Virus record (IMG/VR): IMGVR_UViG_2934748790_000001
Coordinates: 44,058 to 108,057 of that record
Length of the DNA: 64,000 bases
DNA from: a virus
Lineage: Duplodnaviria > Caudoviricetes
Reading direction: 5' to 3' (one strand)
The position numbers and the translations under genes are program-made. Under the pieces are notes generated by a model. That model was given only the letters and a program-made list of their open reading frames with translations, did not search any database and was not told the origin of the DNA. Shown here piece after piece: positions 1-39,990 of the stretch (the first letter of the stretch is position 1; the number at the start of each line of letters is the position of its first letter).

Positions 1-1309
1 GCAGTCCGGAAAATCCGAGACCGTCGCCGACACTGTGGCCGGCGCGGCAATCATGCTCCCCCGGCTCGCCAAGGTGTTTCCCACACTTCTGGGGAAGTTC
101 AAAGAGGGTCTGTGGGTCGGTGTTTTCGCCCCGACCGACGAGATGTCCGAGACTCTCTTTTCCCGCATCGTTGGCCGGCTCACATCCGAGCGCGCCCAGG
201 ACATCATGGCGGACCCGGAGATCGACGAGAAGTTGGTGGCCCGGGGAAAGGTTCTCCACCTCAAGCGCTGCGGGAGCCTCATTCGAAAGCAGACGGCACA
301 TCCGAAGGCCATGATCGAGGGGCAGACCTACCACCTGGTCGTGATCGACGAGGCGCAGGCTGCCGACGACAAGGTACTCAACAAGAGCATCACGCCGATG
401 CTGGCTTCCACCGCTGGGACGATCTGTCTGACAGGCACCCCCACGTACACGAAGTCGGGTTTCTACGAACAGATACAGAAGAATAAGAGAGAATCCACTC
501 GCAAGGGCAGAAAGAGCAACCACTTCCAGGTCGACTGGAAGGAAGTCTCCAAAAGTGTTCCGCGCTACAAGAAGTTCGTGCAGAGCGAGATGGACCGCCT
601 CGGCGAGGACAGCGACGAATTCAAACTGTCTTACCGGCTGATTTGGCTGCTCGACAAGGGCATGCTCTGCACCTCCGACCGTTTCGATTCGCTCGGCGAC
701 GTCTCCATGCGTGCAGTGCAGGAGTGGCACCGCTCCCCCGTGATCGTCGGAATCGACCCCGCCCGGAAAACGGACTCCACGATCGTCACTGTCTGCTGGG
801 TGAACTGGGATTACCCCGACGAGTACGGAAACTACGAGCACCGCGTGCTCAACTGGTTGGATCTCCAGGGCCTGGACTGGGAGACGCAGTATTACCGCAT
901 CGTCGAATTCCTCTCCCATTACAACGTTTTCGCTATCGGCATCGACGCCGGCGGCCTCGGCGACGTGGTGGCCAGCAGGCTGCGAGTGCTCATGCCCTAC
1001 TCCCAGATGATCGACCTGAAAAGCGACCGCACGAATCAGACCAAGCGTTGGGCCCACATGATGGACCTCATGTCCAAGGGCCTCGTGATCTGGCCGGCGC
1101 ACGCCAAGACGCGGTCCACAAAGACCTGGCGGAGATTCAGGCAGCAGATGGAAGACGCTGAGCTGACCTACCAGGGCCCCCACATCATCGTCGCGGCGCC
1201 CGAGGTGGATGCCGCGCACGACGACTACGTGGACTCCCTGGCCAACGCCCTCTTTCTCACCGCAGAAATGAGCATGCCCGAGGTCGAGATGCAGAATGCA
1301 CCCTGGTAG
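1..1309 (+). CDS. Terminase large subunit (5'-truncated by window edge)
   Basis: Frame is open from base 2 and reads QSGKSET (Walker A); also VVIDEAQ (Walker B), TGTP coupling motif, nuclease motifs VGIDPA and HDDYVDS. Confidence 0.93.
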   Translation, partial: QSGKSETVADTVAGAAIMLPRLAKVFPTLLGKFKEGLWVGVFAPTDEMSETLFSRIVGRLTSERAQDIMADPEIDEKLVARGKVLHLKRCGSLIRKQTAHPKAMIEGQTYHLVVIDEAQAADDKVLNKSITPMLASTAGTICLTGTPTYTKSGFYEQIQKNKRESTRKGRKSNHFQVDWKEVSKSVPRYKKFVQSEMDRLGEDSDEFKLSYRLIWLLDKGMLCTSDRFDSLGDVSMRAVQEWHRSPVIVGIDPARKTDSTIVTVCWVNWDYPDEYGNYEHRVLNWLDLQGLDWETQYYRIVEFLSHYNVFAIGIDAGGLGDVVASRLRVLMPYSQMIDLKSDRTNQTKRWAHMMDLMSKGLVIWPAHAKTRSTKTWRRFRQQMEDAELTYQGPHIIVAAPEVDAAHDDYVDSLANALFLTAEMSMPEVEMQNAPW

Positions 1310-1775: not shown

Positions 1776-2486
1776 GTGACCCAGCCCGGACAGTCGACCC
1801 CGTGGGCGAAGTTCCCCATCCCCTCGTCAGGGAAGGTGCCGGACGTCCCGGTCGACCTGGCGGCGGTCGTCGACCCGATCGACACGCTCCTCAAGAACGT
1901 GATCGGCGGGGCGACGGCCCCTACGGGCCCGCTCAGTCCCACCATCACCGAGGCGTCCGCCAGTATCGGGTCTCTCAATGCCACTCAGAGCAGCCAGCAG
2001 ACGGACATCGCCCAGATCAAGGACCAGATCGCCAGGCTTTCGGCGGTGCCGTGGGCGTCGGCGACAGCTCGCACCACGACGCTGAGTATCACCGGCACCA
2101 CCCGTACGCCCACCCAGGTCCACTCGATGACCATTCCGTCCGCCCCGCAGCGGCGCCTGCTCATGGTGCACACGACGATGAGTGTGGGGTGGACGGATAA
2201 CGCCACCACCACTCAGGCGCGAGCCCGTCTCCAGCTCCGGGCGGACGGCTCGGCCACCTACGTCGACCGCAACATCAGCATCACCAGCGGGGTGGACCAG
2301 ACGGCGACCTTGAGCTTCGTCGAGACCGTCGAAGCGGGAAAGAGCCCCTCGGTGCGCCTGACCTTGGAGGTCTATGGCCAGTCCGCCTCTTCGTCTCGCA
2401 TCCTCGCGACGCAGCCGCCGGACCCTCGCATCTATGCCGTTGCGCTCCCCTGGAGTGGCCTGACCGTGCCGTACCTGCCCGTGTAG
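1776..2486 (+). CDS. Hypothetical protein, possibly a virion fibre (short coiled coil plus beta-rich C-terminus)
   Basis: 236-aa ORF abutting the previous gene. Confidence 0.65.
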   Translation: MTQPGQSTPWAKFPIPSSGKVPDVPVDLAAVVDPIDTLLKNVIGGATAPTGPLSPTITEASASIGSLNATQSSQQTDIAQIKDQIARLSAVPWASATARTTTLSITGTTRTPTQVHSMTIPSAPQRRLLMVHTTMSVGWTDNATTTQARARLQLRADGSATYVDRNISITSGVDQTATLSFVETVEAGKSPSVRLTLEVYGQSASSSRILATQPPDPRIYAVALPWSGLTVPYLPV

Positions 2487-2567: not shown

Positions 2568-4281
2568 ATGTCCGTTGCTTTTGTCTCACCGTCCATGCGC
2601 GCAGCCGCCAGCGACCTGACCATCTCTGTCAGTCCGCTCGGATTGGTCGAGTTGGCGGACGAGTTAAGAGGAATTTGAGGTACATGGCCCGCGTCTTACC
2701 CGGTACGCGAATCACTGGGCCTGGTATCTGGGGCATCACTGGGGGTACAAACGGGAGGCCGGCGAACCGAGCCTCACCATCAATTACGTCGGCGCCTTGA
2801 GCCGGTACATCACGAATTTCACATTCGGTCGTGGCGTGCACTTCCAGTCTGACAAGAAGTACGAGCACGTGGTGCCCGCGCTGCTGGAACGCGCCTGGGC
2901 GATCGACAACGACCGGAAGACCGTCCTGTGGCAGATGGGCGAAAACGGTTCAGTCAGTGGCGACTGTTTCGTGAAGGTCGCGTATGAACCGGCGTGGGCC
3001 GATGCTGCGGGAAACGCACACCCCGGTCGTGTTCGCATTCTTCCGCTCAACGGGGCGCAGTGCTTCCCCGAGTATCACCCCCACGATCGTGACCGCCTTC
3101 TCAGAATGAAGATCAAATACAAGTTCTGGGGCACTTCTCTCGAAGGCACTCGCGCGGTGTACACGTACACCGAGATCATCACGGACCACACCATCGAGGA
3201 GTACGTCAACGACGAGCTGCTCGACGCCCGGGAGAACCCACTCGGCACGATCCCCATCGTCCACATCCGGAACATCGCCGTATCCGGCTCCCCCTGGGGC
3301 CTCGCCGACATCGTTGACGTCATCCCCCTCAACCGGGAGTACAACGAAAAGGCGACAGAAGTCTCGGACATCATCAACTACCACTCGGCCCCGGTCACCA
3401 TCATCACCGGCGCCAAGGCCAGCAACCTGGAAAAGGGGCCGCGAAAAATCTGGGGCGGCCTTCCGAAGGACGCGCAGGTTTTCAACCTGGAGAACGGCGT
3501 CGACCTGAGCGGGCCGCTGGCCTACATGGACCTGATCAAGCGGTCCATGCACGAACTGACCGGCGTACCGGAGACAGCCCTCGGGCAAGCCCAGGCGATC
3601 TCCAACACCAGCGGGGTCGCGCTCAGCATTCAGTTCCTCCCCCTTATGCAGCGGTACGCGCTCAAGCAGACGAACTACACCCTCGGCCTCAAGCAGATCA
3701 ACGAACTGGTCCTCCGGACCCTGTTCTTGTACGAGCCCGACACCCTCGTCTACAACCCCGACACTCAGGGAATCCGCACTGCGGACGCCCAGCCCTTGAT
3801 CATCGACCCCCGTGACCCCCAGGTCTACGACACGAAATGCGAGTGGCCGCCCCCCCTTCCGGTCGACGTTCTGGTGAAACTCAACGAGGTGCAGGCGAAG
3901 CTGGCTCTCGGGTTGGAGTCCAAGCGGGGAGCCCTGCGCGACCTCGGCGAGACCTTCGTCGACGAGAAGATGCAGGAAATCTTCGACGAGCAGCTCCGGG
4001 AATCCCGTGAGGAAGGTGCGCTCGAACTTATTAAGGCTCAAATAGCTAGCGCTATCTTGCGTTCAACGGGATTGCCGCCCACGGGCGTGGAAAGCCCGCC
4101 CCCTGCTCCGGCAAGCGGCTCCTCTACCTCGGCAGCCAAATCCGGGGCGACAAGTGCCGGCCCCTTGCCGGGACTCCCCGGAACGGGCAGTGGCAAGGAC
4201 ATCGAATCGGTTCTCAGTGAACTCGTGACGCTCTCCAAGGGCACAAAGCTCGCCCAGCGGAGAAACCCGGAAAACGACTAG
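2568..4281 (+). CDS. Portal protein, interrupted by a 7-nt insert; predicted join 2568..2663 + 2671..4281 (568 aa)
   Basis: Strong RBS AAAGGAGG (2551-2558) before ATG 2568. MSVAFVSPSMRAAASDLTISVSPLGLVELADE continues as EFEVHGPRLTRYANHWAWYLGHHWG in another frame, which runs into the SPP1-gp6-like portal body (NPLGTIPIVHIRN, SNTSGVAL). Confidence 0.88.
2661..2670 (+). other. Candidate translational bypass (ribosomal hop) site GAG-TTAA-GAG
   Basis: Matched GAG codons 7 nt apart; in-frame TTA at 2664-2666; unshifted frame stops at TGA 2676-2678; downstream frame is closed by TAA 2665-2667. Confidence 0.75.
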
Positions 4282-37457: not shown

Positions 37458-38409
37458 ATTCTGGGAGAACCTGGCCGCGTTCTCCAACCCCGTCCCGCAA
37501 GATGTCGCCGGCGCCCTGCACCGACTGGGAATCGACGTCCTGCGCGAGGTGAACGGGGAAGAGTCAACGGAACTTCTTGCCCGCTGCCCCGCCCACCTTG
37601 CTCTCACCGGGCGCGCGGACCGCAGGCCCTCCTTCTCGGTGAACTCGGCCACCGGGCTCTTTCACTGCTTTTCGTGCGGCTACTCCGGGCCCTTCGTGCA
37701 ACTCGTGGAGGACGGGCTTGGGCACTCGCGGATCGACGCGTTCCGCTGGGTGGCACGCCACGGGGTATACCGCACTCAGGACGATCAGCAGCACACCCCC
37801 CGCAAAGAGCCAGAAGACCGGATCACAGAAGCCGCCCTTGCACTTTTCGAGCCGCCGCCGACCAGGGCCCTGGAATCTCGCGGTCTGACCGCCGAGTCGT
37901 GCGCCGCGCTCGGCGTTCTGTGGTGTCCGGTCAAAAAGCACTGGATTCTTCCGATCCGCGACCCCCAGACGGGGGAGCTGTGGGGCTGGCAGGAGAAGGG
38001 GAAACACTTCTTCCGAAACTACCCGCCTGGAATTTTCAAGTCGCGCACCCTTTTCGGTGACCTCTCCTGGCAGGGCCATAAGGCGCTCTTGCTGGAATCC
38101 CCCCTGGACACGGTGCGCGCCCATTCCCTCGGCATACCCGGCGCGTTCGCGGCGTTCGGCGCCCACGTCTCGGAGGCCCAGATGCGGTTGCTCAAATCGC
38201 GCTGCACCATCCTCGTCCTCGGCCTGGACAACGACGAGGCCGGCAACACCTCGCGTGACCGGATCTACACGCGCTGGCGTCCGCGCGGCCTCCCCATGCG
38301 GTTCCTCGACTACACCCACACCCGAGCGAAGGATCTGGGCGACATGGACGACGAGGCCGCCCAGGCGGCCTACGCCTCCGCCTGTCACCCGTGGCGCAGG
38401 AGGCGATGA
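37441..38409 (+). CDS. DNA primase (CHC2 zinc finger plus TOPRIM)
   Basis: CPAH..PSFSVN..FHCFSC; LLESPLD; LDNDEAG; KDLGD. Confidence 0.9.
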   Translation: MNSPTEFWENLAAFSNPVPQDVAGALHRLGIDVLREVNGEESTELLARCPAHLALTGRADRRPSFSVNSATGLFHCFSCGYSGPFVQLVEDGLGHSRIDAFRWVARHGVYRTQDDQQHTPRKEPEDRITEAALALFEPPPTRALESRGLTAESCAALGVLWCPVKKHWILPIRDPQTGELWGWQEKGKHFFRNYPPGIFKSRTLFGDLSWQGHKALLLESPLDTVRAHSLGIPGAFAAFGAHVSEAQMRLLKSRCTILVLGLDNDEAGNTSRDRIYTRWRPRGLPMRFLDYTHTRAKDLGDMDDEAAQAAYASACHPWRRRR

Positions 38410-39990
38410 ATGTTCACCGGCAAGCTATTTCCCTACCAGCACGAGGGCGTTGCCCGCATCCTGTCCGACCGCCGCCTTCTGGTGGCCTACTCGATGGGCA
38501 CCGGAAAGACCGTGCTCACCATCGCCGCCATGGAGGAGATGTTCGGGGAAGGCGACGTGCGCCGCTGCGTCATCCTGGTCCCGTCCTCCCTCAAATGGCA
38601 GTGGGCGCAGGCCATCGCACAGTTCACCGACACCCCCACCCGCACCGTGAAGCTGCGTGGCATGAAGCTGGTCGTCCCGGCCGAGGAAGTCTGCGTGGTC
38701 ATCAACGGCTCGAAGGCCCAACGCCAGAAGCAATGGCAGACGGCACAGCACGCGGAGTACATCGTCGCCTCCTACGGCTCCGTTCTGCACGACTGGAGTC
38801 AGCTCTGCGCCGTGCCGGCGGACGCTCTCGTGCTCGACGAAGCAACAGCCATCAAGAATTTCGCCGCCATGACGACGAAACGCATCAAAAAGCTCAGGCC
38901 CCCGGTGCGAATTGCCCTGACAGGAACGCCGGTTGAGAACCTGCCCGAGGAAGTCTTTTCCATCATGGAGTGGGTCAACTCCAAGATCCTCGGCCGCTGG
39001 GATCTGTTCGACAAGTCATTCATCCAGCGGAACTGGTTCGGTGCGGTCATCGGCTACAAGAACTTGGACCTGCTGAACCGCAACCTCCGGCGATCCATGA
39101 TCCGGAAATCGCGGATGGACCCCGAGGTGGCCAAGTACCTGCCCGAGGTTTCGGAGACCACGCGCCTGGTCCAACTCGACAAGACGACCCGCGCCATCTA
39201 CAAGGCCATCCTGGTCGACCTTCAGGACGCCATGCGCGAGCTGGCCGAGGGCGGCGACGACTTCGACGTAGCCGCGTACTACGCCGGCGTGAAGTCGGAG
39301 GGCAAAGGGGCACAAGGCAAGGTCATGGCGCGCATCCAGGCCGCCCGGATGCTGCTGGACCACCCACAGCTCCTGATGGACAGCGCTGTTGCCTATCACG
39401 AGGGCAAGGGGGGATCTAGGTACGCGGCCGACTTCGCCGCCTCCCGCACCGACCTGCCGGACCTCCACAGCTCCCCCAAGCTCACTGCTCTGGACGAGCT
39501 GGTGGCCACGATGGTCGCCGAAGGCGCGAAGGTCGCCGTCTTCACCGACTACCGGCGCATGCTGCCGTACCTCGTCGAGCGCCTGGAGAAGCACGGCGAC
39601 CTCGTGCAGTTCCACGGCCAGCTCAACGCAGACCAGAAAGCCGGCGCCGTCGCCAAGTTCAAGACGGACCCCGACTGCAAGCTATTTATCTCAACAAATG
39701 CCGGAGGGTACGGACTGGATCTGCCCGAAGCTCAGTACCTGATCAACTACGACCTCCCGTATTCGAACGGGGTACTGGCTCAGCGCAACACACGGCATGT
39801 CCGCGCCTCGTCGCAATTCGACCGGGTCCACGTCACCAACCTCGTGGTCGAGTCCACTATCGAGGAGCGTGTACAAGCCACCCTGAAGCTCCGCCAGTCT
39901 CTTTCCCTGGCAGTGATCGACGGCGCAGGGGCCGGAGAACTCGACATGGACGTGGAGTCCCTGTCAGAAAACATTTCCAGAACATTTTGA
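38410..39990 (+). CDS. SNF2-family helicase
   Basis: MGTGKT, LDEATAIKN, LTGTPVEN, AGGYGLDL. Confidence 0.9.
   Translation: MFTGKLFPYQHEGVARILSDRRLLVAYSMGTGKTVLTIAAMEEMFGEGDVRRCVILVPSSLKWQWAQAIAQFTDTPTRTVKLRGMKLVVPAEEVCVVINGSKAQRQKQWQTAQHAEYIVASYGSVLHDWSQLCAVPADALVLDEATAIKNFAAMTTKRIKKLRPPVRIALTGTPVENLPEEVFSIMEWVNSKILGRWDLFDKSFIQRNWFGAVIGYKNLDLLNRNLRRSMIRKSRMDPEVAKYLPEVSETTRLVQLDKTTRAIYKAILVDLQDAMRELAEGGDDFDVAAYYAGVKSEGKGAQGKVMARIQAARMLLDHPQLLMDSAVAYHEGKGGSRYAADFAASRTDLPDLHSSPKLTALDELVATMVAEGAKVAVFTDYRRMLPYLVERLEKHGDLVQFHGQLNADQKAGAVAKFKTDPDCKLFISTNAGGYGLDLPEAQYLINYDLPYSNGVLAQRNTRHVRASSQFDRVHVTNLVVESTIEERVQATLKLRQSLSLAVIDGAGAGELDMDVESLSENISRTF

Follow-up and report, generated by a model that had tools for sequence, protein, structure and literature searches.

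We have analysed the portal gene of a virus of the Caudoviricetes in a 64,000-nucleotide stretch of DNA (the window), which represents bases 44058-108057 of the IMG/VR provirus record IMGVR_UViG_2934748790_000001 (108,057 nucleotides, rated 100% complete). The reading frame of this gene is broken by seven extra nucleotides (nt), and the break is probably overcome by a short hop of the ribosome. The gene lies on the plus strand behind a Shine-Dalgarno (SD) sequence, GAAAGGAGG, at 2550-2558. Its first coding part (2568-2663) starts at ATG 2568, to which the N-termini of homologues (MSIAFVSPS...) correspond, and its 32 codons match residues 1-32 of the uninterrupted homologue P0003. These codons end L-A-D-E (GAC GAG 2658-2663), the last being the proposed take-off GAG at 2661-2663, and they are followed in the same frame by TTA AGA GGA ATT TGA. 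The TTA at 2664-2666 would be the slow, or hungry, codon in the A site at take-off. If it is read as Leu, the TGA at 2676-2678 closes a product of 36 amino acids (aa). The second coding part (2671-4281) comprises 536 codons from GAA 2671 to the stop codon at 4279-4281. Its frame, +1 relative to the first part, is closed by a TAA at 2665-2667 inside the gap and is open from GAG 2668 to that stop. The gap itself (2664-2670) consists of TTAA and the putative landing GAG at 2668-2670, and these 7 nt would remain untranslated.

The body frame encodes an SPP1-type portal protein (SPP1 Gp6-like, PF05133; E-value 1.3e-21, 77.6 bits against a cut-off of 25.5, residues 9-445) with 90% identity to the 568-aa P0003. 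The best protein matches, P0003-P0006, are annotated in Streptomyces genomes. All four are uninterrupted and 568 aa long, start with MSIAFVSPS... and read ...GLVELADEEFEVHGPRLTRY... without a break, and across the window's gap site the homologues read ...LADEEFEVHGPR.... When 2664-2670 is skipped, the 32 and 536 codons together give 568 aa, the length of P0003-P0006, and the resulting protein is collinear with these four as well as with P0011, P0015 and P0016. Considering that removal of TTAA and one GAG restores collinearity with the homologues, the window has 7 extra nt. A frame-jumping dynamic programming alignment of P0003 with the window DNA showed a single 7-nt jump after residue 31/32, the GAG/GAG junction being one of the equivalent placements, and the gap is absent from the related loci L003, L004 and L035. 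Among 12 gapped portal genes, codons 1-28 gave a proportion of synonymous differences (pS) of 0.455 and of nonsynonymous differences (pN) of 0.074, with a pN/pS of 0.16. On these codon comparisons, the part of the portal gene upstream of the gap is evidently under purifying selection, and both parts appear to be selected.

Much of this layout had been proposed in a first-pass annotation, which was made by a model from the letters of the window. The ribosome-binding site (RBS), the ATG at 2568 and the 32 codons ending in L-A-D-E were confirmed, as were the TTA-A followed by GAG 2668 in another frame that continues unbroken into the portal body and the 36-aa peptide expected from decoding of TTA. 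The 568-aa hop product, which had been matched to the N-terminus of related portals, has the same length and junction as P0003-P0006. The claim that this is the sole in-frame TTA of the plus-strand genes holds with crude gene calls based on GC content at third codon positions, in which four other in-frame TTAs of the window's plus-strand open frames all lie upstream of likely starts. On both strands of the 108-kb record there are 316 TTA trinucleotides, and only at the portal TTA does a flanking codon recur while the frames to its left and right are coding-like; no other TTA-led gap with such frames on both sides was found in the record. Also, no tRNA gene was found in the window or in the whole record, and thus no phage-borne tRNA-Leu(UAA). 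An ordinary in-frame TTA is located 5.5 kb to the left of the window (G000:C1:38544), at codon 69 of a coding-like plus-strand frame of 138 codons (38340-38756), which is the clearest normal TTA-containing gene of the record.

Related portal genes were drawn from viral contigs, metagenomes and genomes, and were analysed by tblastn frames, MAFFT and jump alignment. Loci with 3% difference or less were clustered, so that the 311 loci covering both the N-terminus and the body formed 213 clusters. The allele tallies were curated by hand from script output, and the window and locus L040 were counted as one lineage. A class-level genome search matched one of 401 genomes, namely the query's own genome. 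Gaps were found in 24 of the 213 clusters: 17 of 77 at a gene GC content of at least 0.60, 6 of 42 at 0.55-0.60 and 1 of 94 below 0.55. The first-pass annotation had allowed that the element might be a defective prophage whose relatives are all uninterrupted. The reverse was found in the close Streptomyces clade (identities of about 75% or more), where 14 of 17 clusters are gapped and L003, L004 and L035 are gap-free. Altogether, 36 gaps in 23 lineages represent 25 alleles at ten sites, which lie after P0003 codons 29, 32, 33, 36, 40, 47, 51, 52, 55 and 174, and the gap sizes are 4, 5, 6, 7, 8, 14, 22 and 27 nt. Up to three gaps occur in one gene (L007, L034, L037), and the control loci L003, L035 and L008 showed no jumps in the jump alignment. 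The opening codon of the gap is TTA in 29 of the 36 gaps, TAG in five, AGA in one and ATA in one. In 13 gaps the take-off codon recurs unchanged directly before the resume point, and in 15 a synonymous codon with a changed third base stands there, so that 28 of 36 gaps keep the same amino acid.

The alignment of relatives that had been suggested in the first-pass annotation revealed TTA-led gaps with matched flanks at the very site of the window's gap in L036, L033, L041, L042 and L063. The alleles at this site are GAG-TTAA-GAG in the window, GAG-TTAT-GAG in L036, GAG-TTACC-GAG in L033, L041 and L042, GAA-TTA+16 nt-GAA in L063 and L065, and GAG-ATA...-GAC, with a 27-nt gap, in L026. At other sites, the gaps flanked by Glu codons are GAA-TTAT-GAA, GAA-TTACC-GAA, GAA-TAGC-GAA and the 14-nt GAG-TAG+8 nt-GAG, whereas those flanked by other codons are CTT-TTAC-CTC, CTA-TTACG-CTG, CAC-TTAC-CAC, CAC-TTAG-CAC, TAT-T-TAC (4 nt), TAT-TAGTT-TAC, CGA-TTAC-CGC, CGA-TTAT-CGA, CGA-TT-AGC (5 nt), CGA-TTA-CGC (6 nt, in frame) and CGA-AGACC-CGC (L215:2580-2650). 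From the AGA-led gap of L215 and the ATA-led gap of L026, other rare codons of high-GC hosts are apparently able to replace TTA. The 22-nt gap of L063 (1594-1615), shared with L065, contains ATCACCTCC, whose complement is the RBS of the gene itself, GGAGGTGAT, some 100 nt upstream. This motif is identical in sense to the anti-SD tail of 16S rRNA, and the L063 gap might pair with the RBS.

In the portal genes of high-GC relatives, in-frame TTA is found at gap starts, except for Leu531 in L003, Leu52 in L063 and L065, and one TTA in the distant L029; the TTAs of Leu531 and Leu52 sit at conserved Leu positions. In low-GC relatives TTA is an ordinary Leu codon, and the sole gapped locus among them, L313 (GC 0.46-0.48), opens its gap with TAG. 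The Leu531 codon of the gap-free close relative L003 lies in a conserved GPLPG motif, and sense TTA is thus not excluded from the gene. When the gap sites are lettered A (after codon 29), B (32), C (36), D (40), F (55) and H (174), the portal-body tree places close relatives with different gap combinations side by side. The gap-free L003 is the sister of L033 (B+F), and L034 (A+D+F), L037 (D+F+H), L129 (C+H), L036 (B+H) and L041 (B) fall together in a tight clade. Since close portal bodies differ in their gap combinations, the gaps turn over fast.

In Streptomyces-type hosts no codon is rarer than UUA, and one tRNA alone, bldA, reads it. Gaps of 4, 5, 6, 7, 8, 14, 22 and 27 nt occur at ten sites, and only the skipping of a block explains all of them. 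We consider it probable, from the comparison of these genes, that the window carries a programmed short translational bypass, or ribosome hop, inside an essential phage portal gene. The hop from GAG 2661-2663 to GAG 2668-2670 with resumption at GAA 2671, as put forward in the first-pass annotation, is strongly supported by the gap series in the relatives. During translation, ribosomes would initiate at ATG 2568 and translate 32 codons, after which peptidyl-tRNA-Glu would occupy GAG 2661-2663 and UUA would be the A-site codon. As long as no tRNA enters the A site, the peptidyl-tRNA would unpair, the mRNA would move by 7 nt and the tRNA would re-pair with the identical GAG at 2668-2670. Decoding would then restart at GAA 2671 and yield the 568-aa portal. 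On the one hand, if UUA is decoded instead, the 36-aa peptide would end at UGA 2676. On the other hand, a ribosome that slips by +1 would meet the UAA at 2665-2667. The portal yield would be low and would fall as charged tRNA-Leu(UAA) rises, and a low yield would be tolerable because the virion needs only 12 portal subunits. Both the hop and its efficiency, like any response to bldA tRNA levels, are inferences.

Several points weigh against this interpretation. The relatives were not randomly sampled, in that the pattern scans took the best 80 loci each and the genome samples were drawn evenly. In 8 of the 36 gaps the take-off and landing codons agree in two of their three positions only, and the imperfect pairs are GAA/GAC, GAG/GAC, CGA/AGC, AAT/TAC and AAT/AGC. 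As far as can be read from these alleles, the matched-codon rule is not absolute. RNA folds of 94-101 nt around the site gave no signal relative to shuffled sequences, with z = +0.60 for the window and -1.65 to +1.92 for six relatives. A hairpin is predicted directly 5' of the window's take-off codon (z = +0.60), but the gap-free L003 has this hairpin too, and the SD-like AGAGGA falls in and after the gap, not 5' of it. A stimulatory RNA structure is accordingly unsupported by the folds of the window and the six relatives. In the window taken alone, decoding of TTA followed by a +1 shift at AUU-UGA behind AGAGGA would be a second possible route to the portal body. Finally, the element is probably a prophage of a Streptomyces-type host, and the assignment to Streptomyces is suggested by its relatives. 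As an observation beside the imperfect pairs, AGC recurs as an imperfect landing triplet (CGA-TT-AGC, CGA-T-AGC, AAT-T-AGC), near portal codon 175 in L036 and L037, near codon 42 in L145 and near codon 49 in L309, and the matched-codon rule leaves this recurrence unexplained.

The second route just mentioned corresponds to a programmed +1 frameshift like that of prfB, in which TTA is read as Leu, AGA GGA AUU follow and a shift at AUU-UGA gives ...LADELRGI-EVHGPR.... The window's layout of AGAGGA (2667-2672), AUU (2673-2675) and UGA (2676-2678) resembles the order of SD, shift codon and stop in prfB, and a slow stop together with an SD-like run would help such a shift. However, the product has LRGI where homologues have EF, and departs from a junction that is conserved in all uninterrupted homologues. 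The tRNA-Ile would re-pair with UUU at two positions only, and AGAGGA is part of the Glu-Glu coding sequence and is present in gap-free relatives too. The sister alleles cannot use this route, as L036 has TGA directly after TTA and the AUU-UGA motif is absent from these alleles; nor can a +1 shift mend the 8-, 14- and 22-nt gaps of the relatives, of which those of 8 and 22 nt are at the window's site. Thus, we consider the frameshift extremely unlikely. A different view is that the portal gene is broken in a decaying prophage, or that translation starts at TTG 2797 and the 36-codon open reading frame (ORF) is a separate leader peptide. Consistent with this, IMG/VR lists the record as a provirus, an integrated element, and many portal homologues are called short (481-541 aa), including relatives with products such as P0007 (481 aa), P0008 (516 aa), P0017 (523 aa), P0024 (527 aa) and P0009 (528 aa). 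TTG 2797 is the earliest ATG, GTG or TTG of the body frame, but residues 33-76, which are encoded before it without any start codon, are conserved in homologues, and codons 1-28 of gapped genes have the low pN/pS given above. Independent decay is not expected to leave 14 of 17 close-clade clusters gapped, one design is common to all gaps, and the record is rated complete with intact terminase, scaffold and major capsid genes flanking the portal gene. On selection and conservation, a pseudogene or a downstream start was rejected, and we regard either as very unlikely.

Nothing beyond the frame break itself points to a sequencing or assembly error that added the seven bases. The 7 nt are present without indels in four Logan contig assemblies from three studies (2450-2950 compared, in contigs and not raw reads). 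Two of these are identical to the window and may share its source DNA, and the other two, from another study, have 11 substitutions in 500 nt, none of them within 2661-2680. In addition, GAG TTAAGAG GAA recurs, flanked by substitutions on either side, in locus L040 (genome G154), whose portal body is 98% identical to that of the window, and relatives have different gaps of like design. An assembly error is rejected by the four contig assemblies and L040, and its probability is negligible.

Programmed bypassing is among the rarest decoding modes, and in nature it is best known from T4 gene 60 and its homologues, the byps of yeast mitochondria and the proposed case of the phiHau3 terminase. Hops at hungry codons and at stop codons are said to have been obtained at low efficiency in E. 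coli reporter constructs by Weiss et al. in 1987 and by Gallant and Lindsley. The portal gap resembles these in the short-range move of a peptidyl-tRNA to a nearby cognate codon at a slow A-site codon, although the E. coli cases are artificial and the portal gaps are natural, conserved and in an essential gene. The byps of Magnusiomyces capitatus mitochondria were reportedly described by Lang et al. in 2014 as mobile elements of 27-55 nt. As with the portal gaps, several bypassed inserts occur per gene and many across a family, but the size, the mobility, the mitochondrial location and the decoding context of byps are different. T4 gene 60 has a 50-nt bypass and a mobA cassette, according to the available text of PMC5009743 and of Manning and Atkins 2022 (bioRxiv 10.1101/2022.08.31.505936). 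The window shares with gene 60 the matched take-off and landing codons, a stop or hungry codon in the A site and a gap early in the gene (codon 46 in gene 60, codon 32 here), and a link to homing endonucleases is seen in some relatives (four of nine distant gapped lineages). In contrast to gene 60, the gap is 7 nt and not about 50 nt, no take-off hairpin is supported, and no mobA-like endonuclease gene was found beside the window's portal gene, where the upstream orfB is fibre-like.

The closest known cases are UUA-led gaps in the large terminase gene of phiHau3 (g6/g7/g8), prophage StrepC.1 and a S. catenulae prophage (Antonov et al. 2023, RNA Biol, PMC10732093); the gap in phiHau3 was proposed by Smith et al. 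2013, as credited in PMC10732093. According to the same paper, the phiHau3 terminase has two 10-nt blocks and the S. catenulae prophage terminase a 7-nt block, such blocks were present in 3 of 100 terminase genes, and they had 'largely escaped attention'. The full-length recoding product was detected in S. coelicolor, and in E. coli, with UAA replacing UUA, mass spectrometry revealed the junction peptide. A +1-frame stop placed in the terminase gap gave about 225% of wild-type recoding, or about twofold. The terminase and portal gaps are alike as follows: a short non-coding block lies inside an essential DNA-packaging gene and is absent from uninterrupted homologues, it opens with UUA right after the last sense codon, and the landing codon is cognate to the take-off codon (GAG/GAG in the window). 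Only skipping of the block restores the frame, and a frameshift of 1 nt would break the conserved protein junction. The S. catenulae prophage likewise has a block of 7 nt, and recoding can proceed with a +1-frame stop inside the gap; the window has such a stop naturally (TAA 2665-2667). Differences are that the gene here is the portal and not the terminase, and that the phage belongs to an unrelated lineage of about 108 kb with an SPP1-type portal. Whereas gaps were reported in 3 of 100 terminase genes, the portal family has 24 gapped clusters of 213, with 25 alleles, ten sites and up to three gaps per gene. Some portal gaps are led by TAG, AGA or ATA, and some relatives have an adjacent HNH or Endonuclease VII (EndoVII) gene. 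For a 5' stem-loop and SD stimulators like those proposed for phiHau3, the folds and the position of AGAGGA in the window give no clear support.

The UUA-containing 10-nt gap in the phiHau3 terminase, named in the first-pass annotation, is confirmed by PMC10732093, which describes two such blocks. Its further statement that a 7-nt hop in a portal gene is undescribed stands for the portal and falls for the length: the 7-nt block of the S. catenulae prophage terminase had been described, and no portal case was found in print by full-text literature searches, the word 'portal' occurring in the available text of PMC10732093 only as 'GEO portal'. Accordingly, the kind of event, a UUA-led short bypass in packaging genes of Streptomyces phages, is already known, and what is new is the portal gene and the much richer comparative support. 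In related literature, the available part of PMC12646305 mentions a UUA near the Bxb1 primase overlap as a possible bypass, and the accessible portion of the CW39 paper lists in-frame TTA in nine genes, namely two HNH endonucleases and seven hypothetical proteins. In the portal family, dozens of natural and independent variants differ in gap length (4-27 nt), slow codon, take-off codon (Glu, Arg, His, Tyr, Leu, Asn) and landing fidelity, and these variants make the rules of hopping and the role of bldA directly testable with simple reporters. Also, gene callers shorten gapped portals (481-541 aa), so that intact prophages may be scored as defective.

As for why the gap exists, several candidates can be named, which are not mutually exclusive: it may sense the state of the host, it may give protection from homing endonucleases or be a scar of their action, or it may be an insertion that is simply tolerated. 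One option is a candidate bldA sensor, in which scarcity of bldA tRNA would allow the portal to be made and abundance would shut it off, and head assembly would be gated on host development. This model follows from the established knowledge that UUA is read only by the bldA tRNA. The functional form of this tRNA is lacking in early vegetative growth, as stated in PMC10732093. As the sole explanation, the sensor is weakened by the 7 of 36 gaps that open with TAG, AGA or ATA, by the presence of up to three gaps in one gene and by the HNH-type endonuclease gene beside the gap in four of nine distant gapped lineages.

The same hop may instead have arisen because the gap destroys the target of a homing endonuclease or is a scar of homing, as proposed for T4 gene 60 and mobA; we regard this as a tentative possibility. 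In this case, TTA would be present only because a slow A-site codon makes the insertion bypassable, and hence viable, in a high-GC host. In the four lineages an HNH-type nuclease gene abuts the 5' end of the portal gene: HNH (PF01844) in L024 (5.9e-12) and L313 (8e-10), and Endonuclease VII (PF02945) in L023 (4.4e-23) and L309 (2.3e-23). None of nine gap-free loci tested has a nuclease beside the portal start, although four of nine against none of nine is a small sample. In L309 (2501-3160), the EndoVII-type ORF (172 aa) opens with a diverged version of portal codons 1-33, departing from the portal sequence at the Glu32/33 codon, which is the window's gap site. Behind this ORF lies a complete portal gene, which has an RBS and an ATG (about 3008) of its own and contains a 4-nt TAG-led gap, AAT-T-AGC. 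Moreover, the gaps concentrate in codons 29-55, adjoining the position of the upstream nucleases, and close portal bodies differ in gap combinations. The TAG-, AGA- and ATA-led gaps, the genes with up to three gaps and the gene 60 literature (PMC5009743 and Manning and Atkins 2022, in the parts available) are likewise consistent with immunity to an endonuclease. However, no nuclease lies between terminase and portal in the 14 gapped loci of the close clade, and L045 and L063 have gaps but no upstream ORF. In the distant gapped lineages L145, L215 and L314, other, non-nuclease ORFs abut the portal start. The window's record has no match to PF01844 (HNH) anywhere, and none to PF02945 (Endonuclease VII) in a search that also matched 0 of 14 control genomes and is thus no proof of absence. 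The gene directly upstream of the window's portal encodes a fibre-like beta-sandwich and is present in gapped and gap-free relatives. If the first 55 or so portal codons were a battleground with HNH/EndoVII homing endonucleases, tiny target-destroying insertions would survive only where they can be hopped, being opened in high-GC actinophages by the slowest codon of the host, UUA (less often UAG, AGA or AUA), and closed by a codon of the same tRNA. The 25 alleles would then state the rules of short-range hopping, and in Streptomyces a tie of virion assembly to the bldA tRNA level would be a side effect; we consider this broader scenario rather unlikely. If the endonuclease link is true, the logic of gene 60 and mobA extends to actinophages.

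Upstream of the portal gene, the window contains the 3' part of the large terminase gene (1-1309, plus strand), which is uninterrupted and belongs to a 519-codon stop-to-stop frame in the record, and orfB (1776-2486, plus strand) directly before the portal gene. No Pfam, PHROG or Protein Data Bank (PDB) sequence match was found for orfB, and Atlas gave unnamed viral clusters only. Its AlphaFold model (pLDDT 78.7, above 90 for residues 90-230) has an N-terminal coiled coil and a TNF/C1q-like beta-sandwich, and the best Foldseek matches are phage fibre and TNF-like domains. Considering this predicted fibre-like fold and the lack of a match in those sequence searches, orfB was rejected as a homing endonuclease. 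It changes much faster than its neighbours, with 26-66% identity against 76-90%.

Some further observations were made in the relatives. In L145, a 70-aa ORF directly upstream of the gapped portal (2054-2266) has an Acb2/Tad1 hairpin domain (PF24729, 4e-23), of the anti-CBASS/Thoeris sponge family. In L026 (2154-3148), about 330 aa are inserted in frame at portal residue 270, which gives an ORF of 860 aa; the insertion is intein-like by position, with no Pfam match, and P0102, P0112 and P0114 (880-903 aa) may carry the same kind of insertion. L129 and L130, on contig 1 of genome G615 at about 4.577 and 4.686 Mb, are identical gapped portal regions about 110 kb apart, and could represent a tandem or duplicated prophage.

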